Shown piece by piece: positions 2,930 through 18,058 of a stretch of DNA of 18,058 nt (the stretch's first letter is position 1; each line of letters opens with the position of its first letter). A model generated the notes under the pieces. The model made no database searches. It had not been told where the DNA came from and saw nothing but the letters and a program-made list of their open reading frames with translations. A program made the position numbers and the translations under genes. Origin of the DNA: a virus (lineage: Duplodnaviria; Heunggongvirae; Uroviricota; Caudoviricetes); the IMG/VR virus record IMGVR_UViG_2695420538_000011. One strand, written 5' to 3'.

Positions 2930-3436
2930 TTATGGTCTGCCATGGTTTTCATGAAAACCCAGTTCTTTTTCTACCCTCTTCCTTTCTGCAATAGCGTCAA
3001 TGATGCTAGCAAATATTCCAAGATATTTGGTGCGCCCATCTACGCATATATTCGCAATCCACTTACATCTCTCTTTATTGAAATATACTCCAGTCACTCC
3101 TGACGAATTGGTTATTTTTCTCTTTTGGTTCTGTGCATTCTGTTGGTGTGTAACCAATCGAAGATTAGATAGCCTATTATCTGACCTTACTCCATTTATA
3201 TGATCAATTTTATACCCTAATGGAATCTCACCATTATTTATCATCCATATAACGTGGTGAGCATAAGTAATTACACCATCGATAGTTAACATCCTATAAC
3301 CATCACTCCTAATGTAACCAGCAACACTGCCAACCTTAACATTATTAGAAGGAGACACTTTCCATCTAAGTACACCTAAAACATCATCATATGATAATTT
3401 ATTTCTTAATTCGTCTATGTTGCTTATATTTCTCAT
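2930..3436 (-). CDS. HNH (HNH_3-type) endonuclease with a C-terminal AP2-like DNA-binding region; homing-endonuclease-like insertion in the nin region
   Basis: 168 aa. It carries a GYKIDHINGVRSDNRLSNLRLVTHQQNAQNQ HNH motif followed by a GVTGVYFNKERCKWIANI AP2-like segment. Local base composition is visibly more AT-rich than the flanking nin genes. Lambda has no gene between ninF and ninG. Confidence 0.8.
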   Translation of the reverse strand: MRNISNIDELRNKLSYDDVLGVLRWKVSPSNNVKVGSVAGYIRSDGYRMLTIDGVITYAHHVIWMINNGEIPLGYKIDHINGVRSDNRLSNLRLVTHQQNAQNQKRKITNSSGVTGVYFNKERCKWIANICVDGRTKYLGIFASIIDAIAERKRVEKELGFHENHGRP

Positions 3437-6894: not shown

Positions 6895-7611
<717 letters not shown>

Positions 7612-7723
7612 TCGGCAAGGTGTTCTGGTCGGCGCATAGCTGATAACAATTGAGCAAGAATCTTCATCGAATTAGGGGAATTTTCACTCCCCTCAGAACA
7701 TAACATAGTAAATGGATTGAATT

Positions 7724-8563
7724 ATGAAGAATGGTTTTTATGCGACTTACCGCAGCAAAAATAAAGGGAAAGATAAGCGCTCAATAAACCTGTCTGTTTT
7801 CCTTAATTCTCTGCTGGCTGATAATCATCACCTGCAGGTTGGCTCCAATTATTTGTATATTCATAAAATCGATGGAAAAACTTTTCTCTTTACCAAAACA
7901 AATGACAAGAGTCTGGTTCAGAAGATAAATCGCTCTAAAGCTTCAGTTGAAGATATTAAGAACAGCCTCGCAGATGACGAATCATTGGGATTCCCATCTT
8001 TTTTGTTTGTTGAAGGCGACACCATTGGTTTTGCCAGAACTGTTTTCGGGCCGACCACATCCGATCTGACAGATTTTTTAATCGGGAAAGGAATGTCATT
8101 AAGCAGTGGAGAGCGCGTTCAGATAGAGCCACTGATGAGGGGAACCACCAAAGACGATGTTATGCATATGCATTTCATCGGCCGAACAACGGTGAAGGTA
8201 GAAGCCAAGCTACCTGTATTTGGCGATATATTAAAGGTCTTAGGGGCAACAGATATTGAAGGGGAGCTTTTTGACTCATTGGATATAGTCATTAAGCCAA
8301 AATTTAAAAGGGATATAAAAAAGGTTGCCAAGGATATTATTTTTAACCCGTCACCTCAATTTTCAGACATTAGCCTGCGGGCAAAAGATGAGGCCGGAGA
8401 TATTTTAACAGAACATTATCTATCAGAAAAAGGCCATCTCTCAGCGCCTCTGAACAAGGTCACCAATGCTGAGATAGCTGAAGAGATGGCATATTGCTAC
8501 GCAAGAATGAAAAGTGATATACTGGAATGTTTTAAAAGGCAGGTGGGCAAAGTTAAGGATTAA
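7724..8563 (+). CDS. rexA: RexA (abortive-infection / phage-exclusion sensor)
   Basis: 279 aa, MKNGFYATYRSKNKGKDKRSINLSVFLNSLLADNHH..., matching lambda RexA as recalled. It occupies the canonical position downstream of cI. Confidence 0.95.
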   Translation: MKNGFYATYRSKNKGKDKRSINLSVFLNSLLADNHHLQVGSNYLYIHKIDGKTFLFTKTNDKSLVQKINRSKASVEDIKNSLADDESLGFPSFLFVEGDTIGFARTVFGPTTSDLTDFLIGKGMSLSSGERVQIEPLMRGTTKDDVMHMHFIGRTTVKVEAKLPVFGDILKVLGATDIEGELFDSLDIVIKPKFKRDIKKVAKDIIFNPSPQFSDISLRAKDEAGDILTEHYLSEKGHLSAPLNKVTNAEIAEEMAYCYARMKSDILECFKRQVGKVKD

Positions 8564-8578
8564 TTATCAGGAGTAATT

Positions 8579-9013
8579 ATGCGGAACAGAATCATGCCTG
8601 GTGTTTACATAGTAATAATTCCTTACGTTATCGTAAGCATTTGCTATCTCCTTTTCCGCCACTACATTCCTGGTGTTTCTTTTTCAGCTCATAGAGATGG
8701 TCTTGGGGCGACATTGTCATCATATGCAGGAACCATGATTGCAATCCTGATTGCTGCCTTGACGTTTCTAATCGGAAGCAGAACGCGCCGACTGGCCAAG
8801 ATTAGAGAGTATGGGTATATGACATCGGTAGTTATTGTCTATGCCCTTAGTTTTGTTGAGCTTGGAGCTTTGTTTTTCTGCGGGTTATTGCTTCTTTCCA
8901 GCATAAGCGGCTACATGATACCCACTATCGCCATCGGCATTGCCTCTGCATCGTTCATTCATATATGCATCCTTGTTTTCCAACTATATAATTTGACCAG
9001 AGAACAAGAATAA
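8579..9013 (+). CDS. rexB: RexB (membrane ion-channel partner of RexA)
   Basis: 144 aa with multiple hydrophobic helices, MRNRIMPGVYIVIIPYVIVSICYLLFRHYIPG..., matching lambda RexB as recalled. Confidence 0.95.
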   Translation: MRNRIMPGVYIVIIPYVIVSICYLLFRHYIPGVSFSAHRDGLGATLSSYAGTMIAILIAALTFLIGSRTRRLAKIREYGYMTSVVIVYALSFVELGALFFCGLLLLSSISGYMIPTIAIGIASASFIHICILVFQLYNLTREQE

Positions 9014-9039
9014 CCCGGCCTCAGCGCCGGGTTTTCTTT
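9014..9039 (+). terminator. Intrinsic terminator after rexB (timm)
   Basis: Hairpin CCCGGC-CTCAGC-GCCGGG followed by TTTTCTTT, immediately after the rexB stop codon. Confidence 0.75.
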
Positions 9040-9185
9040 GCCTCACGATCGCCCCAAAACACATAACCAATTGTATTTATTGAAAAATAAATAGATACAA
9101 CTCACTAAACATAGCAATTCAGATCTCTCACCTACCAAACAATGCCCCCCTGCAAAAAATAAATTCATATAAAAAACATACAGAT

Positions 9186-9256
9186 AACCATCTGCGGTGA
9201 TAAATTATCTCTGGCGGTGTTGACATAAATACCACCGGCGGTGATACTGAGCACAT
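9186..9256 (+). promoter_or_regulatory. Left operator OL3-OL2-OL1 with promoter pL
   Basis: OL3 is at 9186-9202, OL2 at 9206-9222 and OL1 at 9230-9246. pL has -35 TTGACA (9220-9225) and -10 GATACT (9243-9248) with a 17-bp spacer, driving plus-strand transcription into N. Confidence 0.9.
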
Positions 9257-9287
9257 CAGCAGGACGCACTGACCACCATGAAGGTGA

Positions 9288-9318
9288 TGCTCTTAAAAAT
9301 TAAGCCCTGAAGAAGGGC
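9288..9318 (+). promoter_or_regulatory. nutL (boxA and boxB)
   Basis: boxA-like GCTCTTAAAAA (9288-9298) is followed by the boxB hairpin GCCCTGAAGAAGGGC (9304-9318). Confidence 0.75.
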
Positions 9319-9490
9319 AGCATTCAAAGCAGAAGGCTTTGGGGTGTGGTGAAGGGTTCATGGATGGGAATATGTCGCACGTAAAGCGGCGAGGCCTGCG
9401 GAACTATTGCCGAATTGAAGTCGGCCGAAGCAGGTCGAAATGGGTCTCCCACCTACCACACCACCAAAGCTAACTGACAGGAGAATCCAG

Positions 9491-9817
9491 ATGGATGCAC
9501 AAACACGCCGCCGCGAACGTCGCGCAGAGAAACAGGCTCAATGGAAAGCAGCAAATCCCCTGTTGGTTGGGGTAAGCGCAAAACCAGTTAACCGCCCTAT
9601 TCTCTCGCTGAATCGCAAACCGAAATCACGAGTAGAAAGCGCACTGAATCCGATAGACCTTACGGCGCTGGCTGAATACCACGAACAGATTGAAAGCAAC
9701 CTGCAACGTATTGAGCGCAAGAATCAGCGCACATGGTACAGCAAGCCACGCAGTGAAATGGGCGTGACTTGTGTTGGTCGCCAGAAAATGAAATTAGGCA
9801 GCAAACCACTTATTTGA
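9491..9817 (+). CDS. N: Antiterminator N (lambda-type, variant C-terminus)
   Basis: Start is at the internal Met (MDAQTRRRERRAEKQAQWKAANPLLVGVSAKPVNRPILSLNRKPKSRVESALNPIDL...), containing the arginine-rich boxB-binding motif. The last ~25 residues differ from lambda N as I recall it. Confidence 0.9.
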   Translation: MDAQTRRRERRAEKQAQWKAANPLLVGVSAKPVNRPILSLNRKPKSRVESALNPIDLTALAEYHEQIESNLQRIERKNQRTWYSKPRSEMGVTCVGRQKMKLGSKPLI

Positions 9818-9825
9818 GGTGAGAT

Positions 9826-10296
9826 ATGACAAAATCATGGAGCGTACCTTTTCCTGAATCAGAAACTGAACATGATGGAATGCCTGTTTTCTGGAGATTC
9901 CAGGCGACAGTTGAAGAAGATGGAATCAAAATATTCGCACTTCAATATATAGCTTTTCATCAGACAGAGCATTATGCATGGTTGGTTCCTGCGCATTGGA
10001 TTGTTGATTTTAAACCAGCACCAAATCAGTGGTTACAGGAATGGAAACAAAAGAGAAATAGATATGCAATTAAGAAAGTAGCAAAAAATGCAGAAAGATC
10101 TTTTGCATTCCCAACGAAGAAACTTGCCATTGAAAGTTTATTGCGCCGGAAGAAATACCATTTAATGAGAATCAAACAAGATTTGGCTGTTGTATCAACT
10201 CTTGTTGATGGGATGAAGAATATTGATACATCAACACCAGATATTGAATATAACTTTGGACACAACCAAGAAACAGAAAATTGGGTATTTTATTAG
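9826..10296 (+). CDS. Hypothetical protein, 156 aa; AT-rich accessory gene (moron) fused directly behind N
   Basis: ATG at 9826 with ribosome-binding site GAGGTGA, 8 nt after the N stop. Base composition is markedly more AT-rich than the surrounding lambda backbone. No catalytic or transmembrane motif is recognisable. Confidence 0.7.
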   Translation: MTKSWSVPFPESETEHDGMPVFWRFQATVEEDGIKIFALQYIAFHQTEHYAWLVPAHWIVDFKPAPNQWLQEWKQKRNRYAIKKVAKNAERSFAFPTKKLAIESLLRRKKYHLMRIKQDLAVVSTLVDGMKNIDTSTPDIEYNFGHNQETENWVFY

Positions 10297-10400
10297 TACA
10301 AATAAGCACTGTGTATTCATTCCAACGAGTGAATACACGGAGCAATGTCGCTCGTAACTAAACAGGAGCCGACTTGTTCTGATTATTGGAAATCTTCTTT

Positions 10401-10428
10401 GCCCTCCAGTGTGAGGGCGATTTTTTTG
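10401..10428 (+). terminator. Intrinsic terminator (N-antiterminable, tL1-like position)
   Basis: Hairpin GCCCTC-CAGTGT-GAGGGC (10401-10418) followed by GATTTTTTT. Confidence 0.65.
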
Positions 10429-10439
10429 ATGGAGGATAT

Positions 10440-11408
10440 ATGAGTGAAGTAACAGATTTAGTTGTTATTGAAAAAGCAAATGCAATGACTGTATTTCAGT
10501 CTGCCGACCAGATTGAAGAAATCCTTCAAAAGGTTGAACGTGAAGTTATGTCCTTTGTGCCTGATATCACAACGGCAAAGGGCAGAAAGGAGATCGCTTC
10601 TCTGGCGTATAAAGTTGCGCAGACGAAAACATATCTCGATGGTCTTGGCAAAGACCTTGTTGCTGAACTGAAGGAAATTCCAAAGCTAATTGATGCCAAC
10701 CGCAAGACAGTGCGCGATCGCCTTGATGAACTGAAAGCCAAGGCGCGCCAGCCTCTTACTGATTATGAGGAAGAACAGGCGCGGATTAAAGCCGAAGAAG
10801 AAGCTAAGGCAGCAGCTGAAGCTCTCGCAAAGCAAATTGAGTCTGACCATGAAATAGCGATTTTGATGGATCGCGAATTTGACCGCCAAAGAGAAGAGGC
10901 AAGACTCAAAGCGGAGCAGGAAAAGCGAGAGTATGAAGAACGCTTAAAAAGAGAAGCTGAAGAGAAAGCCAGAGCTGAAGCCGAAGCAAAGGCAAAAGCA
11001 GAAATTGAAGCAGCAGCAAGGCGAGAAGCAGAAGCTAAGGCCGCAGCGGAACGTGCAGAGCGTGAACGCATTGAAGCCGAGCAACGAGCACAGCGCGAAG
11101 CAAAAGAGGCAGCAGAACGAGCTGAAAGAGAAAAGCAGGCGGCAATTGAAGCAGAACGCCGAAAAGCACAGGAGGAGGCTGAACGAATCCGGCGCGAAGC
11201 TGAAGCAAAAGAGCAAGCCAGAATAGCAGAAGAAAAAAGAATCAAGGACGAAGAAGAGCGTAGAGCAAAGGATAAAGCTCACCGGAAAGAAGTAAATAAC
11301 AAAATACTTGCTGACCTTATCAAGGTTGGTGCATCAGAAGATGTTGCTAAAAATATCATAACAGCCATCGTAAAAGGCGAAGTATTCGCAACAAAAATAA
11401 CCTACTAA
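10440..11408 (+). CDS. Hypothetical protein, 322 aa, with a long central E/A/K/R-rich coiled coil (TolA-like low complexity)
   Basis: Start is taken at ATG 10440 (ribosome-binding site GGAGGA at 10431-10436); the track ORF begins upstream at 10386 and would run through the terminator hairpin. A roughly 110-aa N-terminal globular region is followed by about 170 aa of EAEAKAKAEIEAAARREAEAK-type repeats and a roughly 45-aa C-terminal domain. Confidence 0.7.
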   Translation: MSEVTDLVVIEKANAMTVFQSADQIEEILQKVEREVMSFVPDITTAKGRKEIASLAYKVAQTKTYLDGLGKDLVAELKEIPKLIDANRKTVRDRLDELKAKARQPLTDYEEEQARIKAEEEAKAAAEALAKQIESDHEIAILMDREFDRQREEARLKAEQEKREYEERLKREAEEKARAEAEAKAKAEIEAAARREAEAKAAAERAERERIEAEQRAQREAKEAAERAEREKQAAIEAERRKAQEEAERIRREAEAKEQARIAEEKRIKDEEERRAKDKAHRKEVNNKILADLIKVGASEDVAKNIITAIVKGEVFATKITY

Positions 11409-11432
11409 TAAAACCAACATAAGGAACCACCC

Positions 11433-11564
11433 ATGATTTACGCAATCGCGGGAGGCGCTCGCATGGGTGCCTTCCAATTAAATGAATCTTTACTTGAACG
11501 AATCACCCGTAAATTACGTGACGGATGGAAAAGAGTTGAAGTCTTATTATGCGCAATGAAATAG
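11433..11564 (+). CDS. cIII: cIII-like protein (FtsH/HflB inhibitor), 43 aa
   Basis: My own translation gives MIYAIAGGARMGAFQLNESLLERITRKLRDGWKRVEVLLCAMK. The ESLLERITRKLRDGWKR core matches the lambda cIII amphipathic helix as recalled. Ribosome-binding site is AAGGAA. The ORF is below the track cutoff. Confidence 0.7.
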   Translation: MIYAIAGGARMGAFQLNESLLERITRKLRDGWKRVEVLLCAMK

Positions 11565-11701
11565 CCATCAATCACCAGATGCTTCGTGCTGCACAGAACA
11601 AAGCAGTAATAGCAAGATTTATTGGTGATTCCAAAATGTGGCTTGAAGCAAATAAAGCGATGAAATCAGCGATCAACATTCCGTGGTATCGCAGGAAATG
11701 A
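11549..11701 (+). CDS. Kil-like small protein, 50 aa
   Basis: My own translation gives MRNEIAINHQMLRAAQNKAVIARFIGDSKMWLEANKAMKSAINIPWYRRK. It overlaps the cIII 3' end as lambda kil does. Similarity to lambda Kil is from vague recall only. Confidence 0.45.
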   Translation: MRNEIAINHQMLRAAQNKAVIARFIGDSKMWLEANKAMKSAINIPWYRRK

Positions 11702-11805
11702 GTTTTACAGATAACTGGTCAGACGAAGAATTCATTCGTCAGATGAAAGAAATGCTCAATCAGCACAAAGAACAGGAGAAAGATGATGATTCTGACTCTG
11801 AATGA
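11698..11805 (+). CDS. Possible small acidic ORF, 35 aa
   Basis: ATGA overlap with the kil-like stop; translation MSFTDNWSDEEFIRQMKEMLNQHKEQEKDDDSDSE. It overlaps the start of the next gene out of frame and has no other support. Confidence 0.3.
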   Translation: MSFTDNWSDEEFIRQMKEMLNQHKEQEKDDDSDSE

Positions 11806-12094
11806 TAAGCGTGAAATATCGCAAATTATCGCAAGTTTTACTGATGAAGATTACGAACGAATCAACAGTGAAGTTGATCGCCTCTGCAAACGTTGCGACC
11901 CAATAAGCGAAATGCTTCGCTCATATAAACCAGATGAACACACTAAGGACGCTATCGACTGGCTGGAAGATGATGACTGTAACTATCAGGAAAAAGCCGC
12001 TGAATGGTTCTGGGATGCAATAACCGAAAGAGTTAAGGCTGAATATGCCTTCGCAATATTCAAGCGCAGACACATTTTTGGAGAAGCAGCATGA
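11783..12094 (+). CDS. Hypothetical acidic protein, 103 aa, at the position lambda gam occupies
   Basis: Ribosome-binding site AGGAG at 11774-11778, with ATG at 11783 or 11786. D/E-rich sequence with no resemblance to lambda Gam. The stop overlaps the RecT start (ATGA). Confidence 0.6.
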   Translation: MMILTLNDKREISQIIASFTDEDYERINSEVDRLCKRCDPISEMLRSYKPDEHTKDAIDWLEDDDCNYQEKAAEWFWDAITERVKAEYAFAIFKRRHIFGEAA

Positions 12095-13002
12095 GCAATA
12101 TCGTTGAATTCGTTAAACAGCAGGAGCAGTTATTCTGCGGAGCATTGACTGAACAGACGGTGACATGGGCTAAGGAAAGCCAGTTTGCAATTCAGTATTT
12201 CCAGAAAAACGATTACCTGGCTAAAACAGCACTGGCAAATCCAACCAGCGCACAGAACGCCATCATCAATGTTGCGGCGATCGGCATCACCTTAAACCCG
12301 GCCAGCAAACTGGCTTATCTGGTTCCTCGCGACGGCATGGTGTGCCTTGATATCAGTTATATGGGATTGCTCCATATTGCAATGGAGTCTGGTGTTATCT
12401 CATGGGGTCAGGCAAAACTTGTTCATGCTAACGATACCTATGAGTCAAACGGGCTTGATAAAGCACCAACCCATAAATACAACGCCTTCGGTGATCGTGG
12501 TGATATCGTTGGCGTTTACTGCACAGTTAAGACGCCAGCAGGTGATTATCTAACGGAAGAGATGAGTCTGGCTGAAATTGAGGCTGTAAGGAAAACAAGC
12601 AAGGCGGCATTCAGCGATAAAGGACCATGGGTAAATCACTGGAATGAGATGGCGCGAAAGACGGTCGTAAAGCGTGCAAGCAAGTATTGGCCTAAGGCAT
12701 CACGTCTTGATAGTGCTATTCACGTACTAAACGAAGAAGAAGGTGTGTGGACTGAACCAGTTATGCCGCACAAATCAGAGGAAGATATCCGCGAAGATGA
12801 ACGGAAACGCCAGCAGGAAATAATGGAAAAAGCACAACTTCTTTGTGATGAAATGGCTCAGGCTGAAAAAATGGATGATTTGAAGAGATATTTTGCAGAA
12901 GCATATCGCCTGACATCTGGAATGAAATTGCAGCAGAACATACAAGCCATTTACATAGAATGCAAAGCGAAACTGGAGGTTGCCAGTGAGCAAACTGTAT
13001 GA
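12091..13002 (+). CDS. recT: RecT-family single-strand annealing recombinase (replaces lambda Bet)
   Basis: 303 aa. The motif GPWVNHWNEMARKTVVKRASKYWP matches the conserved RecT signature (GPW..HW.EMA.KT...R..KY.P). Ribosome-binding site is GGAGAAG. Confidence 0.85.
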   Translation: MSNIVEFVKQQEQLFCGALTEQTVTWAKESQFAIQYFQKNDYLAKTALANPTSAQNAIINVAAIGITLNPASKLAYLVPRDGMVCLDISYMGLLHIAMESGVISWGQAKLVHANDTYESNGLDKAPTHKYNAFGDRGDIVGVYCTVKTPAGDYLTEEMSLAEIEAVRKTSKAAFSDKGPWVNHWNEMARKTVVKRASKYWPKASRLDSAIHVLNEEEGVWTEPVMPHKSEEDIREDERKRQQEIMEKAQLLCDEMAQAEKMDDLKRYFAEAYRLTSGMKLQQNIQAIYIECKAKLEVASEQTV

Positions 13003-13468
13003 AATAGCCAATGAATACGCAAAATTGATGGATTCAGATTTAGAACCAGAGATGATTGCTGACACAATAGAAGGCATGGAAGGAGAATTTACCGATAAAA
13101 TAGAGCAACTTCTTTCCGTCATTAAAAATGAATCTGGTTATGCTGAACGCCTCAAGGAAGAGGCAAAGTCACTTAATGAGCGAGCCGCAGTAATCCAAAA
13201 TAAGATTGACAGCATCAAATCATATATAGCGTCATCGCTTGAAATGGTTGGCAAGAAAAATATTCGAGCAGGTATTCACCAGGTAACAATCCGCAAACCG
13301 TCAGAAATTGTAGAAATAATCGACTCAAGCGCCCTTCCTCCTGAATACGTTGAGTTTGAAACGACAATTAAAGCCGACAAACTGGCAATCAAACACCAAC
13401 TAAAAGCAGGAATAAATATCCCCGGCGCTCAACTCAAAGTTGGGAAACCTTCACTTCTTATCAAATAA
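12986..13468 (+). CDS. Hypothetical protein, about 160 aa, possibly Gp157-family (recombination-module-associated)
   Basis: The track lists this from 12980 (a TTG codon); GTG 12986 has better spacing to the GGAGG ribosome-binding site. The protein is coiled-coil-rich with an MSKLYEIANEY start. The family assignment is tentative and from memory. Confidence 0.5.
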   Translation: MSKLYEIANEYAKLMDSDLEPEMIADTIEGMEGEFTDKIEQLLSVIKNESGYAERLKEEAKSLNERAAVIQNKIDSIKSYIASSLEMVGKKNIRAGIHQVTIRKPSEIVEIIDSSALPPEYVEFETTIKADKLAIKHQLKAGINIPGAQLKVGKPSLLIK

Positions 13469-13479
13469 CGGTATCGCCT

Positions 13480-13794
13480 ATGAAAAAGACTCCATGGGAG
13501 AAATGGGAAGTCGATTTCTTGCGCGAGGTAGCGGCGACAATGCCAGTTGAAGTTATCGCAGAAAAACTGGAAAGGACTGAAAAAGCAGTAATGGCGAAAG
13601 CAACAAGGATTGGCGCTGACATTGTTAGCCGACTTCGTGGAAGACGCTGGACAAGAGCCGAAGTATCACTTTTCGGTAAGTTCTCCGCAGAAGAAATAGC
13701 AATTGCAACCTGCCGCTCAATTTATTCAGTAAGAGCTATGCGATACAAGCTAAAAAAACTCGATGAAGAAAGAGCAGGCATACGAATAAATTAA
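13480..13794 (+). CDS. Hypothetical protein, 104 aa, with an internal tandem duplication of a W-x3-EV...E(V/I)IA...R(T/S)..(A/S)V.A motif
   Basis: Residues 5-45 and 57-95 align to each other (WEKWEVDFLREVAATMPVEVIAEKLERTEKAVMAK versus WTRAEVSLFGKFSAEEIAIATCRSIYSVRAMRY). This may be a helical DNA- or RNA-binding repeat. Confidence 0.55.
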   Translation: MKKTPWEKWEVDFLREVAATMPVEVIAEKLERTEKAVMAKATRIGADIVSRLRGRRWTRAEVSLFGKFSAEEIAIATCRSIYSVRAMRYKLKKLDEERAGIRIN

Positions 13795-13810
13795 CATGGA
13801 ATAATTAACA

Positions 13811-14092
13811 ATGAAGCTAAACATCGACCTCGGAAAATACGTTATTACCGGAACCAAACACGACCTGATTCTTAGCGAAAGAGGAATTATCAAAGAAGGC
13901 GAGAATGCAGGGAAAGAAACACTAAGTCGTATCGGTTATTACAGCAAGTTTGAGCATCTGGTTAAAGAGTTATGCAACCGTGAAATCCTGTTATCTCAGG
14001 CGCAGACGCTACAGGATATTCAGCAGCATATCGAGACTTTAGGTGTATCACTTAGCATGGCTGTTGACCAGTTCATGGAGAGTAAATCATGA
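13811..14092 (+). CDS. Hypothetical protein, 93 aa
   Basis: ORF in the supplied track; its stop overlaps the next start (ATGA). No recognisable motif. Confidence 0.5.
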
Positions 14093-14256
14093 GAGGACTT
14101 GCATACAATCCCGGCATTCTTCCGGCAGAAATGATTATTCGCCAACGCGTAAAGCCAATGCCATCGAGAGAGGAATTGCTTAAGCGAAACTCGTTTCCAT
14201 CAGTGAATCAGAACAAATATCTGAATGCGATGTGGCGTAAAGGAGGCAAACAGTGA
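14089..14256 (+). CDS. Hypothetical small protein, 55 aa
   Basis: My own translation gives [55 protein letters not shown]. Ribosome-binding site GGAGAG; ATGA and GTGA coupling on both sides. Confidence 0.45.
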
Positions 14257-14501
14257 GCAATTCAGCACGACTACAGCTTGGTTTTTCACCGCTATCAAAA
14301 ACAATCGTGTTGGCAAAAATGCGTGACTTAGGGGATGGAACAAAACGTCGTGTCGGCAATGATCGCGGTCGCGATGTAACCAACGAGGCCGCACAACTCG
14401 TTTGGCATCTAGTCATGGCTGAAGGCGGTGAAATTAATTGGGAGCTGGATGATGGTTCTCGCATGGTATTGAAGGCAGAAAAGCAGGAGCCTCCACAGTG
14501 A
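14253..14501 (+). CDS. Hypothetical protein, 82 aa (GTG start)
   Basis: Ribosome-binding site AGGAGG at 14241-14246 with GTG at 14253. It is translationally coupled to its neighbours. Confidence 0.5.
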
Positions 14502-14773
14502 ATATCGACACCACGATAACGATCGATACGGCCCTAAATACCGGACTGGCACTTCTCGGTTGGCTTTACATCATGTCCAGTACATGGCGATGGCTGGGTT
14601 CCATTTTCCTAAAACAGTGGAAAAAACGGCGCAAACAGGAACTACGCCAGAAGGCATTAGAAGCGTTCTATGACGCATTTGAACTTAGCCGCATAGAACC
14701 AGGCACAACAGCCAGGATAGCGACAAAAGGCGACCTGATGATAGTGATGTTCAGACAGGAGAAAACAAAATGA
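14498..14773 (+). CDS. Hypothetical small membrane protein, 91 aa (one predicted transmembrane helix, basic juxtamembrane segment)
   Basis: GTG start with ribosome-binding site AGGAG. The hydrophobic segment LNTGLALLGWLYIMSSTWRWLGSIFL is followed by KQWKKRRKQELRQK. Confidence 0.55.
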   Translation: MNIDTTITIDTALNTGLALLGWLYIMSSTWRWLGSIFLKQWKKRRKQELRQKALEAFYDAFELSRIEPGTTARIATKGDLMIVMFRQEKTK

Positions 14774-14994
14774 CAGAACAGACGATGACAAATCGCGAAC
14801 TTGTTGATGCCGCGATTGAACTTGCTGGCGATTTTTATTCCATGATGGGTTACGAGCATCGACCTGGTTTTAAGTATTGGGAGTCACCGCATCCGCAAGA
14901 ACAACAGGTGTTTGAAATGGCTTGCCGTGCTTTTGAGGTTATTCGCGGTTCTGATGTGATGGACGCCGTTGCCGACTTGGAGGATGAAGAGTGA
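14770..14994 (+). CDS. Hypothetical acidic protein, 74 aa
   Basis: ATGA overlap with the upstream gene; ribosome-binding site AGGAG; GTGA overlap with the downstream gene. Confidence 0.5.
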   Translation: MTEQTMTNRELVDAAIELAGDFYSMMGYEHRPGFKYWESPHPQEQQVFEMACRAFEVIRGSDVMDAVADLEDEE

Positions 14995-16232
14995 GCGAGA
15001 TTAACTATCAGGCACTGCGTGAAAAGGCAGAAAAAGCAACGTGGGGAGACTGGGACTCATATAAACCACACCGTGGCGCACGTGGTTATAAGGTCCGACT
15101 AAGTGGTCAGGCCATTGCGCAACACGTTCTGAAAAACAACGCTGAATTTATTGCTGCCTTTAATCCAAAGGTTGCTTTGGCATTACTGGATGAACTGGAA
15201 AGAAACCAGCAATACATAAAACGCCGCGACCAGGAGAACGAGGAAATTGCGCTAACGGTAGGGAAGCTGAGAGTTGAGCTTGAGGAAGTAAAACAACACG
15301 CTGAAGAATTATCCGAAACCAAGGCTGTTCGTAACCAATGGCGGCCAGATATTTGCCCAATAACCGGACGTGCATTTTTCATGTGGATTGAGCATCCAAC
15401 ATTGGGGAATGTGCCGACATATGGTGGCCCATTAGATAGTTACACCATTCCAACAAAGGACGGTGACGGTGAGTTTTCATGTGAGCGTTACGATCATGAT
15501 TTTGGCGGTTGGGTAGAAAGCGAATGTCTTGGGTTATATCTGATTGATGATAGAGAACAATGCAGGGTCTACGAACTGGAGGAACGCGTTAAGGAACTGG
15601 ATGCTCGGGAAATATCGCTCCCGGAACGTAGCAGCATGCTTCATCGAACAGATTTTCACGATGATTACCAAACGGTAATGGCATACAAAGTTTCTGAAGT
15701 CATCGCTGCAATCCGCGCCGCCATGCTTCAGTCCGGAAACTTTCGGGAAAACAAGAATTCGTCAACCAATAATTTTCGGGAAATCGCGGAAACGTCAACC
15801 AACTATCCGGCAATTCCTAGTGAGGTGTTGTCCGCAATCCTGAAGGTTGCCAGGATTCGTGCCGATTTCGATGATTTTGACGGTGACAGGCGAGGTATCG
15901 GTGATTGTCTGGATGAGGCTGAGCAAGAGCTTATCGTTACCATTAACAAATATGCCAGTCAGTTGGCAGCAGAACCTATAGCGCCTAATGACGTTCGAGA
16001 GCAGACAGCCATTCCACAAGTTCCGGTAACTCCGGATGGTTGGATAAGCTGTAGTGAGCAAATGCCCGCTCAAGATGATTGGATTTTAATTTATTCAAAG
16101 CACGGCGAGTATATGGCAGGACAGGTACAAGGGGAATACGTGGAGTTGAGCGACGGCACTTTATCGTGGTTAGGGAACGCCTTGTACTGGATGCCGCTAC
16201 CAGAACCGCCGCAGGAGGTTAACCGTGGCTAA
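14991..16232 (+). CDS. Ead/Ea22-like protein with a C-terminal DUF551-like domain, 413 aa
   Basis: GTG start with ribosome-binding site GGAGGA. The N-terminus MSEINYQALREKAEKATWGDW and the C-terminus WISCSEQMPAQDDWILIY...YWMPLPEPP resemble the Ead/Ea22 and DUF551 families common in enterobacterial prophages, assigned from memory. Confidence 0.7.
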   Translation: MSEINYQALREKAEKATWGDWDSYKPHRGARGYKVRLSGQAIAQHVLKNNAEFIAAFNPKVALALLDELERNQQYIKRRDQENEEIALTVGKLRVELEEVKQHAEELSETKAVRNQWRPDICPITGRAFFMWIEHPTLGNVPTYGGPLDSYTIPTKDGDGEFSCERYDHDFGGWVESECLGLYLIDDREQCRVYELEERVKELDAREISLPERSSMLHRTDFHDDYQTVMAYKVSEVIAAIRAAMLQSGNFRENKNSSTNNFREIAETSTNYPAIPSEVLSAILKVARIRADFDDFDGDRRGIGDCLDEAEQELIVTINKYASQLAAEPIAPNDVREQTAIPQVPVTPDGWISCSEQMPAQDDWILIYSKHGEYMAGQVQGEYVELSDGTLSWLGNALYWMPLPEPPQEVNRG

Positions 16233-16509
16233 CCTTCAACTTGCCGTCAAAGGTGAATACTTCGATGCCATGATTCGCGGAGAGAAAACGGAAGAGTATC
16301 GCCTGTGTAATGACTATTGGAATAAGCGCCTCGTTAACCGTAAGTATGACCGCCTGATTATCACAAAGGGATATCCGAAGCGCGACGATTCCAGCCGCAG
16401 AATTGATGTTCCGTATGACGGATATGAAATAAAGACAATCACACATCCCCACTTCGGCGATAAACCGGTAAAGGTGTTCGCGATAAAGGTAAATATCGGC
16501 AATAAATAA
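16225..16509 (+). CDS. ASCH-domain (PUA-like) protein, 94 aa
   Basis: GTG start with ribosome-binding site AGGAGG. It contains the ASCH signature G-x-K-x-x-E-x-R (RGEKTEEYR). Confidence 0.65.
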   Translation: MANLQLAVKGEYFDAMIRGEKTEEYRLCNDYWNKRLVNRKYDRLIITKGYPKRDDSSRRIDVPYDGYEIKTITHPHFGDKPVKVFAIKVNIGNK

Positions 16510-16513
16510 CAAT

Positions 16514-16539
16514 CCTCGCACTCGCGGGGATTTATTTTA
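16514..16539 (+). terminator. Intrinsic terminator after the ASCH gene
   Basis: Hairpin CCTCGC-ACTC-GCGGGG (one G-U pair) followed by ATTTATTTT. Confidence 0.5.
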
Positions 16540-16581
16540 TCTGAACTCGCTACGGCGGGTTTTGTTTTATGGAGATGATAA

Positions 16582-16749
16582 ATGCACTTCCGAGTCACAG
16601 GTGAATGGAATGGAGAACCATTCAACAGAGTTATCGAAGCAGAGAACATCAACGACTGCTATGACCACTGGATGCTGTGGGCGCAGATAGCACATGCAGA
16701 CGTAACCAATATTCGAATTGAAGAACTGAAAGAACACCAAGCCGCCTGA
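16582..16749 (+). CDS. Hypothetical small protein, 55 aa, upstream of xis
   Basis: My own translation gives MHFRVTGEWNGEPFNRVIEAENINDCYDHWMLWAQIAHADVTNIRIEELKEHQAA. Ribosome-binding site GGAG. The stop codon lies inside a CCGCC-TGAT-GGCGG hairpin followed by TTTTTTCTT. Confidence 0.5.
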   Translation: MHFRVTGEWNGEPFNRVIEAENINDCYDHWMLWAQIAHADVTNIRIEELKEHQAA

Positions 16750-16800
16750 TGGCGGTTTTTTCTTGCGTGTAATTGCGGAGACTTTGCGATGTACTTAACA
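16743..16800 (+). promoter_or_regulatory. Terminator-like hairpin and cII-activated promoter pI overlapping the xis start
   Basis: Hairpin CCGCC-TGAT-GGCGG plus T-run (16743-16769), then a TTGC-N6-TTGC cII site (TTGCGTGTAATTGC, 16763-16776) just upstream of xis, as in lambda pI. Confidence 0.55.
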
Positions 16801-17007
16801 CTTCAGGAGTGGAACGCACGCCAGCGGCGCCCAAGAAGCCTTGAAACAGTTCGTCGATGGGTGCGCGAATGCAGGATATTCCCTCCTCCGGTTAAGGATG
16901 GAAGAGAGTATCTGTTCCACGAATCAGCGGTAAAGGTTGACTTAAATCGACCAGTAACAGGTAGCCTTTTGAAGAGGATCAGAAATGGGAAGAAGGCGAA
17001 GTCATGA
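16789..17007 (+). CDS. xis: Excisionase Xis
   Basis: 72 aa, MYLTLQEWNARQRRPRSLETVRRWVRECRIFPPPVKDGREYLFHESAVKVDLNRPVTGSLLKRIRNGKKAKS, identical to lambda Xis as recalled. Confidence 0.95.
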   Translation: MYLTLQEWNARQRRPRSLETVRRWVRECRIFPPPVKDGREYLFHESAVKVDLNRPVTGSLLKRIRNGKKAKS

Positions 17008-18058
17008 GCGCCGGGATTTACCCCCTAACCTTTATATAAGAAACAATGGATATTACTGCTACAGGGACCCAAGGACGGGTAAAGAGTTCGGATTAGGCAG
17101 AGACAGGAGGATAGCAATTACTGAAACAATACAGGCCAATATTGAGTTACTCTCAGACAGCGGACGCAAATCACTGATAGACAGAATTAAAGGCGGTGAC
17201 GCAATCACTCTTCATGTGTGGCTTGACCGATATGAAAGAATCCTCACCGAAAGGGGGATCAGGCCGAAAACTCTACTCGACTACGCCAGCAAAATCAGGG
17301 CAATCCGAAGAAAATTGCCGGACAAACCGCTCACTGACATATCAACGAAAGAAGTGGCAGCAATGCTAAACACCTACGTAGCAGAAGGTAAAGCAGCTTC
17401 CGCAAAATTAATCAGGTCAACCCTTGTTGACGTTTTTCGTGAAGCAATAGCCGAGGGGCATGTGGCAACGAATCCGGTAACAGCAACCCGTACAGCAAAG
17501 TCAGAAGTAAGGCGCTCAAGGCTGACAGCTAATGAGTATGTCGAGATTTACCATGCAGCCGAACCTCTCCCTATCTGGCTAAGGCTGGCGATGGATTTGG
17601 CCGTCGTTACAGGGCAGAGAGTCGGCGATTTGTGCAGAATGAAATGGTCAGACATAAACGACAACCATCTTCACATTGAACAGAGTAAAACAGGGGCTAA
17701 ACTCGCCATTCCGCTAACGCTAACGATTGACGCGCTCAATATCTCACTGGCTGATACACTACAGAAATGCAGGGAGGCCAGCAGCAGTGAAACTATAATC
17801 GCATCAAAGCATCACGATCCGCTTTCCCCGAAAACAGTATCAAAGTATTTTACAAAGGCGAGAAATGCATCTGGACTCTCATTTGATGGAAACCCGCCAA
17901 CATTCCATGAACTGCGTAGCCTGTCAGCGAGGCTATACCGGAACCAGATTGGCGATAAGTTTGCTCAACGTCTTCTCGGGCATAAATCAGACTCAATGGC
18001 GGCGCGGTATAGGGACAGCCGTGGACGGGAATGGGACAAAATTGAAATCGACAAATGA
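16985..18058 (+). CDS. int: Tyrosine integrase Int (lambda family; N-terminal arm-binding domain lambda-like, core and catalytic domains divergent)
   Basis: 357 aa. The N-terminus MGRRRSHERRDLPPNLYIRNNGYYCYRDPRTGKEFGLGRDRRIAITE matches lambda Int as recalled. Catalytic residues are present (GQRVGDL, HELRS, LLGHKS, MAARY). It overlaps xis as in lambda. Confidence 0.93.
   Translation: MGRRRSHERRDLPPNLYIRNNGYYCYRDPRTGKEFGLGRDRRIAITETIQANIELLSDSGRKSLIDRIKGGDAITLHVWLDRYERILTERGIRPKTLLDYASKIRAIRRKLPDKPLTDISTKEVAAMLNTYVAEGKAASAKLIRSTLVDVFREAIAEGHVATNPVTATRTAKSEVRRSRLTANEYVEIYHAAEPLPIWLRLAMDLAVVTGQRVGDLCRMKWSDINDNHLHIEQSKTGAKLAIPLTLTIDALNISLADTLQKCREASSSETIIASKHHDPLSPKTVSKYFTKARNASGLSFDGNPPTFHELRSLSARLYRNQIGDKFAQRLLGHKSDSMAARYRDSRGREWDKIEIDK

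Follow-up and report, generated by a model that had tools for sequence, protein, structure and literature searches.

Six Small Accessory Genes in the Early-Left Region of a Lambda-Like Escherichia coli Prophage

Introduction

Lambda and the Stx phages carry, in the pL operon and between the recombination genes and xis/int, an exo-xis region (orf60a, orf63, orf61, orf73, ea22 and ea8.5) composed of small, tightly packed genes that are expressed early and are non-essential. In lambda and Phi24B, the exo-xis genes have effects on both lysogenisation and induction (PMC3824215 and others). The equivalent part of P22 (Rec module and ea region) comprises erf, abc1, abc2, orf56, eaE, eaF and eaD. Abc1, encoded in the Rec module of P22, promotes recombination by a mechanism that is not known, and HK140 has been classed as SAP-4 + MuGam (PMC12315714). 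Abc1 has an HTH, may itself act through DNA binding, causes cell death that depends on P4, and has counter-defence phenotypes (bioRxiv 10.1101/2023.04.06.535777). P2 has a small early DUF5405 ORF upstream of a TraR/DksA-like gene and gene A. Phages also encode small membrane exclusion proteins, such as HK97 gp15 and T4 Imm.

The DNA analysed here (the window, the whole stretch of 18,058 nucleotides) contains six small genes, O1 to O6, in a comparable position. They are probably genuine small genes of a variable exo-xis/ea segment, made up of mosaic accessory modules, in a lambdoid prophage with lambda immunity.

The Locus and Its Transcription

The gene order in the window is cI, rexA, rexB, pL, N, Kil, RecT, Gp157, O1-O6, Ead/Ea22, xis and int. 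The features relevant to this work are listed below.

9220-9248, + strand: lambda-type pL promoter (promoter scan, TTGACA-17 nt-GATACT), the expected promoter of the entire early-left operon
11549-11701: Kil (Pfam Lambda_Kil match)
11783-12094: 103-aa gene preceding the Rec module
12091-13002, + strand: RecT (Pfam RecT, 3.6e-32)
12986-13468, + strand: Sipho_Gp157 or 'Mu Gam-like' gene (Pfam Sipho_Gp157, 2.4e-37)
13480-13794, + strand: O1, 104 aa, basic (pI 10), two-repeat HTH protein, Abc1-like, last gene of the Rec module
13811-14092, + strand: O2, 93 aa, DUF5405 protein, homologue of a P2 early-operon ORF
14089-14256, + strand: O3, 55 aa, pI 11, DUF2737 protein, homologue of P22 orf56
14253-14501, + strand: O4, 82 aa, GTG start, DUF7446 protein
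14498-14773, + strand: O5, 91 aa, DUF4752 protein, predicted single-pass membrane protein
14770-14994, + strand: O6, 74 aa, acidic, three-helix protein whose large family is not in Pfam
14991-16232, + strand: Ead/Ea22-like + DUF551 gene, 413 aa (Pfam Ead_Ea22, 4e-28; DUF551, 9.2e-11)
16225-16509: 94-aa gene following the Ead/Ea22 gene
16511-16532, + strand: first + strand terminator-like hairpin 3' of the six genes (terminator scan)
16789: xis
16985: int

The six ORFs of 55-104 aa that an earlier note on this DNA had described are all present, with exactly those limits and on the + strand. An identical set of six CDS is annotated by PGAP (NCBI) in a prophage of E. coli ST131 strain 4993 whose corresponding sequence is 100% identical, and O1-O6 are, as such, already annotated accessory genes of a lambda-like E. 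coli prophage.

Positions 8838-9792, which span rexB-pL-nutL-N, are 91% identical to lambda 36000-35062, and O1-O6 lie 4.2-5.7 kb downstream of pL on the pL strand. The terminator scan of 10656-16511 returned no terminator-like site on the + strand. Because the genes follow a lambda-homologous pL segment on its own strand and this interval is free of + strand terminator-like sites, early co-transcription from pL, already proposed in the earlier note, is a sound inference, and the six genes would be transcribed together as part of an N-antiterminated early-left operon. The Rec module (RecT and Gp157, with PHROG matches 148 and 253) is of the HK140 type. Two features that mark the lambdoid exo-xis/ea region are found here: a position on the pL strand, between the Rec module and xis/int, and a mosaic gene content. 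The early-left location to which attention had been drawn is that of a known accessory region in which host-modulating genes are found (literature).

Junctions and Ribosome-Binding Sites

The six genes had been described as chained by ATGA/GTGA stop-start overlaps. This holds for four of the five internal junctions, which are 4-nt overlaps (ATGA at O2/O3 and O5/O6, GTGA at O3/O4 and O4/O5), but not for O1/O2, which is a 16-nt gap. The chain runs past position 14994, where O6 is joined through GTGA to the 413-aa Ead/Ea22 gene, which in turn overlaps the next gene (16225-16509) by 8 nt. Likewise, of the individual ribosome-binding sites attributed to all six genes, those of O3-O6 are clear Shine-Dalgarno sequences (duplex energies with the anti-SD between -6.6 and -11.6 kcal/mol), but those of O1 (-3.0) and O2 (-3.3) are near the window background, whose mean is -2.5 kcal/mol. 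The -4 overlap of O5 is retained with three different upstream and two different downstream genes. From O2 onwards, the genes would be translationally coupled to their neighbours through these overlaps, a type of junction that appears to be preserved regardless of which gene adjoins.

Conservation of the Block

The earlier note regarded the six genes as a cassette, a view that it held to be refuted if they were not conserved as a block in relatives, and this lack of conservation is what the comparisons revealed, with genes that assort independently. All six are present in 3 of 80 O5-anchored loci, 2 of 80 O3-anchored loci and 3 of 79 O6-anchored loci, and the full block, counted as at least 80% of the stretch, is found in 5 of 5,426 E. 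coli genomes, parts of it being found in 1,973. Around O5 (n=80), O6 is present in 34 loci, O4 in 17 and O1-O3 in 3-4; around O3 (n=80), O1 is present in 11, O2 in 18, O4 in 8, O5 in 13 and O6 in 3; O5 accompanies O6 in 40 of 79 loci; and O1 (n=69) is accompanied by RecT and Gp157 in every locus and by O2 in 32, all these sets being built from the 80 closest matches, skewed to near-identical relatives and not independent samples. The presence of O2 between O1 and O3 is, therefore, optional.

The reading of the cassette as a unit is unsupported because the full block is rare and its genes assort independently. As judged from sequence comparison, O1-O6 form a patchwork in which each gene has been shuffled separately, and not a single functional cassette. 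The region would fall into at least four modules that assort independently and keep a fixed colinear order: the first would contain the 103-aa gene, RecT, Gp157 and O1, the second O2, the third O3, and the fourth a variable set taken from O4-O6, Ead and the 94-aa gene (16225-16509).

O1, an HTH Protein of the Rec Module

O1 matches phrog_11492 (4.6e-23, the best match) and phrog_323 (2.8e-20), and P22 Abc1 matches the latter family as well (1.3e-23). Direct comparison of O1 with the Abc1 family by hhalign gives E values of 5.5e-5 to 8e-4 with probabilities of 24-66%, which is weak at the sequence level, and tblastn of O1 against P22 gave no match. BLAST did not reproduce the 'Abc1' label given in the Gally record, for which there is weak support at profile level. 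An internal tandem duplication of a helical motif had been noticed, and two HTH repeats are indeed visible in O1, but the duplication is weak within O1 itself (hhalign E 6e-4); BLASTP of one half against the other gave no alignment, the repeat being seen by profile comparison only. The duplication stands out clearly in three-repeat homologues alone, in which repeats 2 and 3 align with an E of 4e-11. The HTH signals are of the sigma-70 r4, LuxR and Myb kind; the O1-family profile matches the NarL HTH with an E of 0.005, and PDB sequence searches with O1, O2 and O6 found nothing besides this weak match of O1.

The position of O1 is shared by its relatives. Three sequence-divergent homologues each come directly after a different kind of Rec module, divergent ones being located directly 3' of Gam/YqaJ and DUF3799 modules, and O1, as Abc1, is a small HTH protein at the Rec-module end. 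No match to P22 abc2 was found among the window ORFs compared (9826-18058), the neighbouring slot being occupied by Gp157. Most likely, O1 would bind DNA as a two-repeat HTH protein of the Abc1 kind, accessory to the Rec module, although the link to Abc1 could reflect no more than a generic Myb/sigma-r4-like HTH. Alternatively, O1 might be a plain phage transcription regulator, acting for example on the accessory genes downstream or on a competing element, functionally unrelated to Abc1 or recombination and placed in this slot by a mosaic accident. The kind of HTH repeats, the PHROG label 'transcriptional regulator, D5-like', and the weak Shine-Dalgarno sequence and flanking gaps of 11-16 nt that separate O1 from the coupled chain are in keeping with this idea, which is, however, somewhat unlikely, given that divergent homologues follow three kinds of Rec module and that P22 Abc1 is also an HTH protein with the same slot and the same PHROG; moreover, a regulator and an Abc1-type protein are not mutually exclusive.

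A broader proposal takes the Abc1-type reading of O1 further: two- and three-repeat HTH proteins, P22 Abc1 included, would form a widespread class of obligate companions of unrelated phage Rec modules (RecT/Gp157, Gam/YqaJ and DUF3799) with DNA-binding roles in counter-defence or satellite sensing and, separately, O5 and O6 would be new anti-defence or exclusion effectors. This proposal is speculative and, as a whole, unlikely.

O2, O3 and O4

O2 matches DUF5405 (Pfam, 1.8e-5, 25.5 bits against a gathering threshold of 21.6) and phrog_154 (5.2e-31), and is 34-35% identical to the P2 protein over 85-88 aa. The PHROG label of this family, 'replication initiation protein', is unsupported and was apparently carried over from the adjacent gene A. 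The library of a 200-gene functional screen included a P2-type DUF5405 protein, which is absent from the reported hits, which is silence and not a negative result; a peptide-motif search of the supplements of Silas et al. found that protein only, O1 and O3-O6 being absent. O3 belongs to DUF2737 (Pfam, 8.8e-32, 109.2 bits against a gathering threshold of 25) and is found on at least 595 viral contigs; its HK140 counterpart, gp37, is annotated as similar to HK97 gp38. O4 matches DUF7446 (Pfam, 5.6e-18, 65 bits against a gathering threshold of 24.1) and phrog_1578 (6.9e-34), and is present in 21 phage records with varied hosts and genome sizes. The three proteins may be dispensable early modulators.

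O5 and O6

O5 is a DUF4752 protein (Pfam, 3.1e-42, 143 bits against a gathering threshold of 27) with a hydrophobic helix, conserved in the family, that is followed by a basic KKRRK stretch. Its description as a single-pass membrane protein is backed by the AF2 model (pLDDT 77, helix 3-60 and a C-terminal beta-hairpin at 71-86) and by a calculated Wimley-White value of -10.9 kcal/mol, compared with -12.05 for the RexB TM segment and -3.1 or higher for each of the remaining early-left proteins compared, but is marginal on the Kyte-Doolittle scale (1.26, below the classical threshold of 1.6). O5 is probably a bitopic (N-out/C-in) membrane protein with a basic juxtamembrane helix, as predicted; the inner-membrane helix and the cytoplasmic basic helix would engage a component of the host envelope. 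The fold search with the O5 model was uninformative.

O6 matches the C-terminal half of the phrog_4132 profile (2.3e-42) and is modelled by AF2 as three helices (pLDDT 89); a fold search with this model gave no informative match. The O6 domain is also found fused to unrelated N-terminal regions, and a Pfam scan of ten long O6-domain proteins identified no fused domain. O6 might serve as an acidic protein-binding module.

The two proteins might form a two-gene module of a membrane anchor and an acidic soluble partner, such as an exclusion or anti-defence pair or a toxin and its neutraliser. The genes are ATGA-coupled, co-occur in the 34 of 80 O5 loci and 40 of 79 O6 loci given above, and are together in the P1-like phage D6 (88.7% identity), and the net charges of their products are opposite (+5.5 for O5 and -12.3 for O6). 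However, the partner is missing in about half of the loci of each gene, three loci have the opposite order, with O6 preceding O5, and the O6 family (445 clusters in the representative library), with its unrelated N-terminal fusions, is far wider than DUF4752 (156 proteins at E <= 0.001). The co-occurrence counts are, in addition, inflated because the sampling favours close relatives, and such a pair is quite improbable.

Collective Role

By analogy with the non-homologous exo-xis genes of lambda and Phi24B, for which such a role has been shown, the six genes would be collectively non-essential and would adjust the physiology of the host, the choice between lysis and lysogeny, or the evasion of defence. 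Very unlikely, by comparison with this reading as mosaic modulators, is one co-functional host-takeover or anti-defence cassette with O5 as its key effector, a Kil-like or superinfection-exclusion membrane toxin. The tight overlaps and common strand, the early-left location, the conserved helix of O5 with its basic tail, and the precedent of counter-defence factors among the accessory genes of such regions speak for it. Against it, the block is not conserved across the anchored locus sets and the E. coli genomes, and Stx, P22-like, P1-like, Klebsiella and Erwinia phages carry O5 without the other five genes, while in BTP1 it is placed in the nin region. The toxin role proposed for O5 fares no better: the phage already encodes RexAB and a separate Lambda_Kil gene, DUF4752 is the sole Pfam match of O5, which does not match the Lambda_Kil model, and its fold search, as mentioned, adds nothing. 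NCBIfam and PADLOC model searches with O1-O6 gave no match, O5 included, while RexA and RexB matched PADLOC as positive controls.

Coding Status

The coding signal is apparent in all six genes, where variable sites among homologues are concentrated at codon position 3 (at positions 1/2/3, 1/1/13 in O4 and 8/3/30 in O6), and each protein matches a Pfam or PHROG family. That at least one ORF is an untranslated annotation artefact (most plausibly O3, the shortest, or O1 and O2, whose Shine-Dalgarno complementarity is at background level) is extremely improbable in view of this codon-position-3 excess in six of six ORFs, the strong profile matches of O3 (8.8e-32), O2 (phrog_154) and O1 (phrog_11492) cited above, and the conservation of O2 homologues at 34% identity in P2-like phages. 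An Rfam scan of the whole window found no RNA family, and a literature search by the four DUF names (DUF5405, DUF2737, DUF7446 and DUF4752) returned a single incidental mention.

This stretch is typical, ordinary, already annotated lambdoid mosaic accessory DNA. Its value is that of a catalogue entry, in which a 'cassette' becomes a set of separately mobile early genes with coupling preserved at each border. The lead that it offers is O1, since O1-type HTH proteins follow three kinds of Rec module and resemble P22 Abc1, for which counter-defence and P4-triggering phenotypes are reported. Should O1, O5 or O6 prove to act in anti-defence or exclusion, this would enlarge the toolkit of the many E. 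coli, Salmonella and Stx prophages that carry these genes.

Comparison with Known Systems

The likeness to the exo-xis region of lambda and the Stx phages is one of position and lifestyle. As in lambda, an Ead/Ea22-like gene (its product 35% identical to that of ea22) and a homologue of lambdap35 (98% identity) are located just downstream of O1-O6, but none of the lambda exo-xis genes has a homologue among the six (tblastn, 0 of 6 ORFs), in agreement with the claim that none resembles a lambda gene. O5 is, as lambda Kil and the small exclusion proteins, a small, early product with one hydrophobic helix, and the window Kil is a separate gene. O2 resembles the P2 DUF5405 ORF, also a small early gene of a temperate phage, although phage type and operon differ.

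In P22, the protein encoded by orf56 is 77% identical to O3, and Abc1 is similar to O1 in size (about 100 aa), in having two HTH, in its distal position within a Rec module and in matching phrog_323. P22 differs in that O1 and Abc1 share no BLAST-level similarity, in that the Rec module of the window lacks Abc2 and Erf, and in that P22 has no counterpart of O2, O4, O5 and O6. As for HK140, the DNA of Gp157-O1-O2-O3 is 97-98% identical to its gp40-gp37, and the O1 protein is 99-100% identical in HK140, mEpX1, Gally and Kapi1. The window and HK140 diverge 3' of O3, where gp36, an Ead-like gene and others replace O4-O5-O6 in HK140.

The early region of the prophage

The window corresponds to the early region of a lambdoid prophage and runs opposite to the lambda map. 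On the minus strand are cro, cII, O, P, NinB, an HNH endonuclease, NinG, a metallophosphatase and Q. Along the plus strand the order is cI, rexA, rexB, N, a 156-aa gene, a 340-aa coiled-coil gene, Kil, a 103-aa gene, RecT and the Sipho_Gp157 gene, followed by six small ORFs (O1-O6, 13480-14994), an Ead/Ea22 and DUF551 gene, a 94-aa gene, a lambdap35 homologue, xis and int.

Features of the window, with gene borders and, for O1-O6, variable sites at codon positions 1/2/3 among ungapped homologues
1413-2159, minus: calcineurin-like phosphoesterase gene, nin region, beside NinB, NinG and Q
2930-3436, minus: HNH_3 endonuclease gene, nin region, beside the same genes
7724-9013, plus: rexA (279 aa) and rexB (144 aa), after a lambda-like cI
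10386-11408, plus: 340-aa coiled-coil ORF
11549-11701, plus: Kil
12091-13002, plus: RecT
12986-13468, plus: Sipho_Gp157 gene; 11-nt gap to O1
13480-13794, plus: O1, 104 aa; 4/2/9; 16-nt gap to O2
13811-14092, plus: O2, 93 aa; 8/5/25; ATGA overlap with O3
14089-14256, plus: O3, 55 aa; 9/7/21; GTGA overlap with O4
14253-14501, plus: O4, 82 aa; 1/1/13; GTGA overlap with O5
14498-14773, plus: O5, 91 aa; 29/18/51; ATGA overlap with O6
14770-14994, plus: O6, 74 aa; 8/3/30; GTGA overlap with Ead
14991-16232, plus: Ead/Ea22-like and DUF551 domains in a single 413-aa ORF; 8-nt overlap with the next gene
16225-16509, plus: 94-aa gene, labelled ASCH-domain by PGAP in the strain 4993 prophage (annotation label only)
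16582-18058, plus: lambdap35 homologue, xis and int

The lambda rexB-pL-N segment is 91% identical to 8838-9792. Both rex genes are full-length (Pfam and PADLOC matches), so the classical Rex abortive-infection pair is present in the prophage. The 340-aa ORF is listed with a TTG start, but its true start is probably Met19 (10440), because PHROG alignments begin at residue 19; the protein, which belongs to no Pfam family, has a long coiled-coil middle rich in E/A/K/R. Just upstream of Met19 there is a terminator-like hairpin with a T-run (10399-10420), in a segment 97% identical to lambda 34045-33911, which we take to be the tL1 region. The strain 4993 counterpart of the Ead/DUF551 gene (15692-17314 of that record) is longer and is annotated in three pieces: a 209-aa Ead gene, a pseudogene fragment and, separately, a DUF551 gene. 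Identity to lambda is 98% for the lambdap35 homologue and 98.6% for xis and only 75% for int, suggesting that a recombination joint may lie inside or just before int.

Gene borders and transcription

All six ORFs were confirmed at their positions. Three genomes, one of them that of E. coli O25b:H4-ST131 strain 4993, have a 100% identical copy of 13300-15200, and the PGAP annotation of strain 4993 contains these six CDS exactly. All six ORFs have good coding signal, as judged from a profile family match for each and from codon-position variation. The earlier note had described six ORFs chained by ATGA/GTGA overlaps, each with its own ribosome-binding site. The overlaps hold from O2 to O6, but O1 and O2 are separated by a gap, and further overlaps join O6 to Ead and Ead to the next gene, so the chain begins at O2 and extends past O6. 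Anti-Shine-Dalgarno duplex energies are strong for O3 (-6.8 kcal/mol), O4 (-11.6), O5 (-6.6) and O6 (-7.4), whereas those of O1 and O2 (-3.0 and -3.3) are at background level (window mean -2.5, sd 2.6).

The early-left location on the pL strand was borne out by the map and by a promoter scan, which placed the lambda pL hexamers (TTGACA-17-GATACT) at 9220-9248. The terminator scan found no plus-strand terminator-like site between 10656 and 16511. Since pL is in place and no such site intervenes, we can reasonably infer that O1-O6 would be co-transcribed from pL. Some 400 nt upstream of O1, at 13059-13088, the scan lists a weak promoter-like match (9/12); overall, it gave fewer sites than shuffled sequence.

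A mosaic stretch of catalogued genes

The proposal that the six genes form one cassette was not borne out. Of 5,426 complete E. coli genomes, 1,973 contain some part of the 1.9-kb stretch but only 5 have at least 80% of it, and the genes assort independently among IMG/VR loci.

Genes found beside each anchor gene in IMG/VR loci (closest 80 matches each; near-identical relatives are favoured by this sampling, which makes the counts purely descriptive)
O1 anchor, 69 loci with adequate flanks: RecT, Gp157 and O3 in 69, O2 in 32, O4 in 13, O5 in 16, O6 in 3
O3 anchor, 80 loci: O1 in 11, O2 in 18, O4 in 8, O5 in 13, O6 in 3
O5 anchor, 80 loci: O6 in 34, O4 in 17, O1-O3 in 3-4
O6 anchor, 79 loci: O5 in 40; inverted order (O6 before O5) in 3

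Where present, the genes are nearly always colinear. The -4 overlap of O5 persists with different neighbours, three upstream and two downstream, so the overlap is a property of the gene borders of the region and not of the O1-O6 set. O5 is also found in the nin region of Salmonella phage BTP1 (3980-4252 of that record), in the P1-like phage D6 and in Stx, Klebsiella and Erwinia phages. The stretch is ordinary exo-xis/ea accessory DNA from a mosaic lambdoid prophage. Public genomes already have it annotated, and its genes all fall into catalogued families without assigned function.

O2 belongs to DUF5405 (phrog_154) and shares 34-35% identity with a P2 early-operon ORF located beside a TraR/DksA-like gene and gene A. 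Its PHROG and RefSeq label, replication initiation protein, was rejected, being most likely carried over from the adjoining P2 gene A. A P2-type DUF5405 protein was part of a 200-gene screen library and is absent from the named hits (bioRxiv 10.1101/2023.04.06.535777). O3 is a DUF2737 protein (8.8e-32), 77% identical to P22 orf56 (7450-7620 of the P22 record), with a counterpart in HK140 gp37 (annotated as similar to HK97 gp38), and it occurs in at least 595 viral contigs. Several types of Rec module have it as their immediate distal neighbour: RecT/Gp157 in the window, Erf/Abc in P22 and DUF3799 in Enterobacter (L328, 5276-5449). DUF2737 behaves as a conserved border gene, with the Rec module on one side and the variable ea genes on the other. 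O4 (DUF7446) occurs in 21 phage records that differ in genome size and host.

The O5 and O6 proteins

O5 belongs to DUF4752, a family restricted to Enterobacterales (156 proteins at E <= 0.001), with a nearly invariant N-terminal stretch (T-A-L-N-T-G-L-A-L-L-G-W-x-Y-I) followed by K-Q-W-x-K-R-R-K-Q and a short C-terminal region. The membrane helix attributed to it is favoured by an AlphaFold model (pLDDT 77) with one helix (residues 3-60) and a beta-hairpin (71-86), and by a Wimley-White octanol value of -10.9 kcal/mol, compared with -12.05 for a RexB segment and at least -3.1 for the other early-left proteins tested, although its best 19-residue Kyte-Doolittle window (1.26) is below the usual threshold of 1.6; on hydrophobicity the picture is mixed. 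We consider it fairly probable that O5 is membrane-anchored. The helix has two acidic residues ahead of it and a basic cluster behind it, so the positive-inside rule predicts an N-out/C-in topology. A Kil-like or superinfection-exclusion toxin, as the earlier note proposed, finds no support: a bona fide Kil (Pfam Lambda_Kil, 1.7e-20) is encoded separately at 11549-11701, upstream of the Rec module, and therefore already accounts for the Kil function of the phage. This gene was missed by tblastn against lambda. Neither PADLOC nor a fold search matched O5 to known exclusion proteins. What the note had observed largely holds, apart from some details of gene borders and ribosome-binding sites, and of its interpretation the place and timing stand, but not the genes as a unit or the toxin.

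O6 has a net charge of -12, a confident three-helix model (pLDDT 89) and a conserved core, G-Y-x-H-R-x-G-F-K-Y-W-x-S-P-H-P-x-E; an acidic protein-binding role would be a guess. A profile search of 1.84 billion representatives gave 445 clusters (50% identity), 133 of them at E <= 1e-10. The unit, of about 70 aa with the family core G-Y-x-H-R-x-G-F-K-[YF]-[WY]-x-S-x-H-P-x-E, occurs alone or, in many clusters, as the C-terminal domain of longer proteins, and one protein (P0268) has two matched stretches of it. The family has no Pfam model, and a Pfam scan of ten long members found no domain at gathering level.

O1 and Abc1-type proteins

O1 is a basic protein (pI 10.0) composed of two copies of a helix-turn-helix unit, W-x3-E ... 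E-x-I-A ... R-[ST]-x-x-[AS]-V. BLASTP found nothing between the halves; profile comparison aligns them in register (E 6e-4). In longer homologues (about 152 aa) a third repeat is present that matches repeat 2 (E 4e-11), and these homologues also have precomputed Sigma70_r4_2 matches; the family profile matches the NarL C-terminal HTH (E 0.005). A protein of phage Gally (2681-2995 of its record), 100% identical to O1, was deposited as 'Anti-RecBCD protein 1, similar to P22 Abc1'.

BLAST-level similarity to Abc1 is absent, tblastn of O1 against P22 giving no match. P22 Abc1 (94 aa), however, scores above the Pfam Sigma70_r4_2 cut-off (27 bits vs 25.7), contains the same repeat (W-S-x-x-E ... V-A-x-x-L-G-R-S-E-E-S-V) and shares phrog_323 with O1 (1.3e-23 and 2.8e-20, respectively), and hhalign aligns its family with O1 repeat 1 at a weak score (E 5.5e-5, probability 66%). 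Taken together, this mixed evidence leads us to read O1 as an Abc1-like HTH accessory protein of the Rec module, and at most as a candidate member of the Abc1 family.

In P22, Abc1 is part of the Rec module and aids recombination without being essential for it; the HK140 Rec module has been classed as SAP-4 + MuGam (PMC12315714), and it is the one found in the window. In a functional screen, abc1 caused P4-satellite-dependent cell death and made several hosts more sensitive to infection (bioRxiv 10.1101/2023.04.06.535777). Directly past the prophage integrase, strain 4993 carries a P4-like satellite (19492-28710 of its record) with Ogr/Delta-like, DUF927 primase-like, Icd-like and sce7725/sce7726 genes, one further product being annotated 'P2 family phage major capsid protein'; the satellite is of note given that this P4-dependent death is reportedly triggered by P22 Abc1. 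Divergent O1 homologues adjoin, directly downstream, different recombination modules: the order is KilR, Gam, a 167-aa gene, YqaJ exonuclease and the O1 homologue in Salmonella, and Kil, DUF3799 nuclease, a 189-aa gene, the O1 homologue and DUF2737 in Enterobacter. That O1/Abc1-type HTH proteins are consistently paired with unrelated recombination modules is the sole lead worth pursuing.
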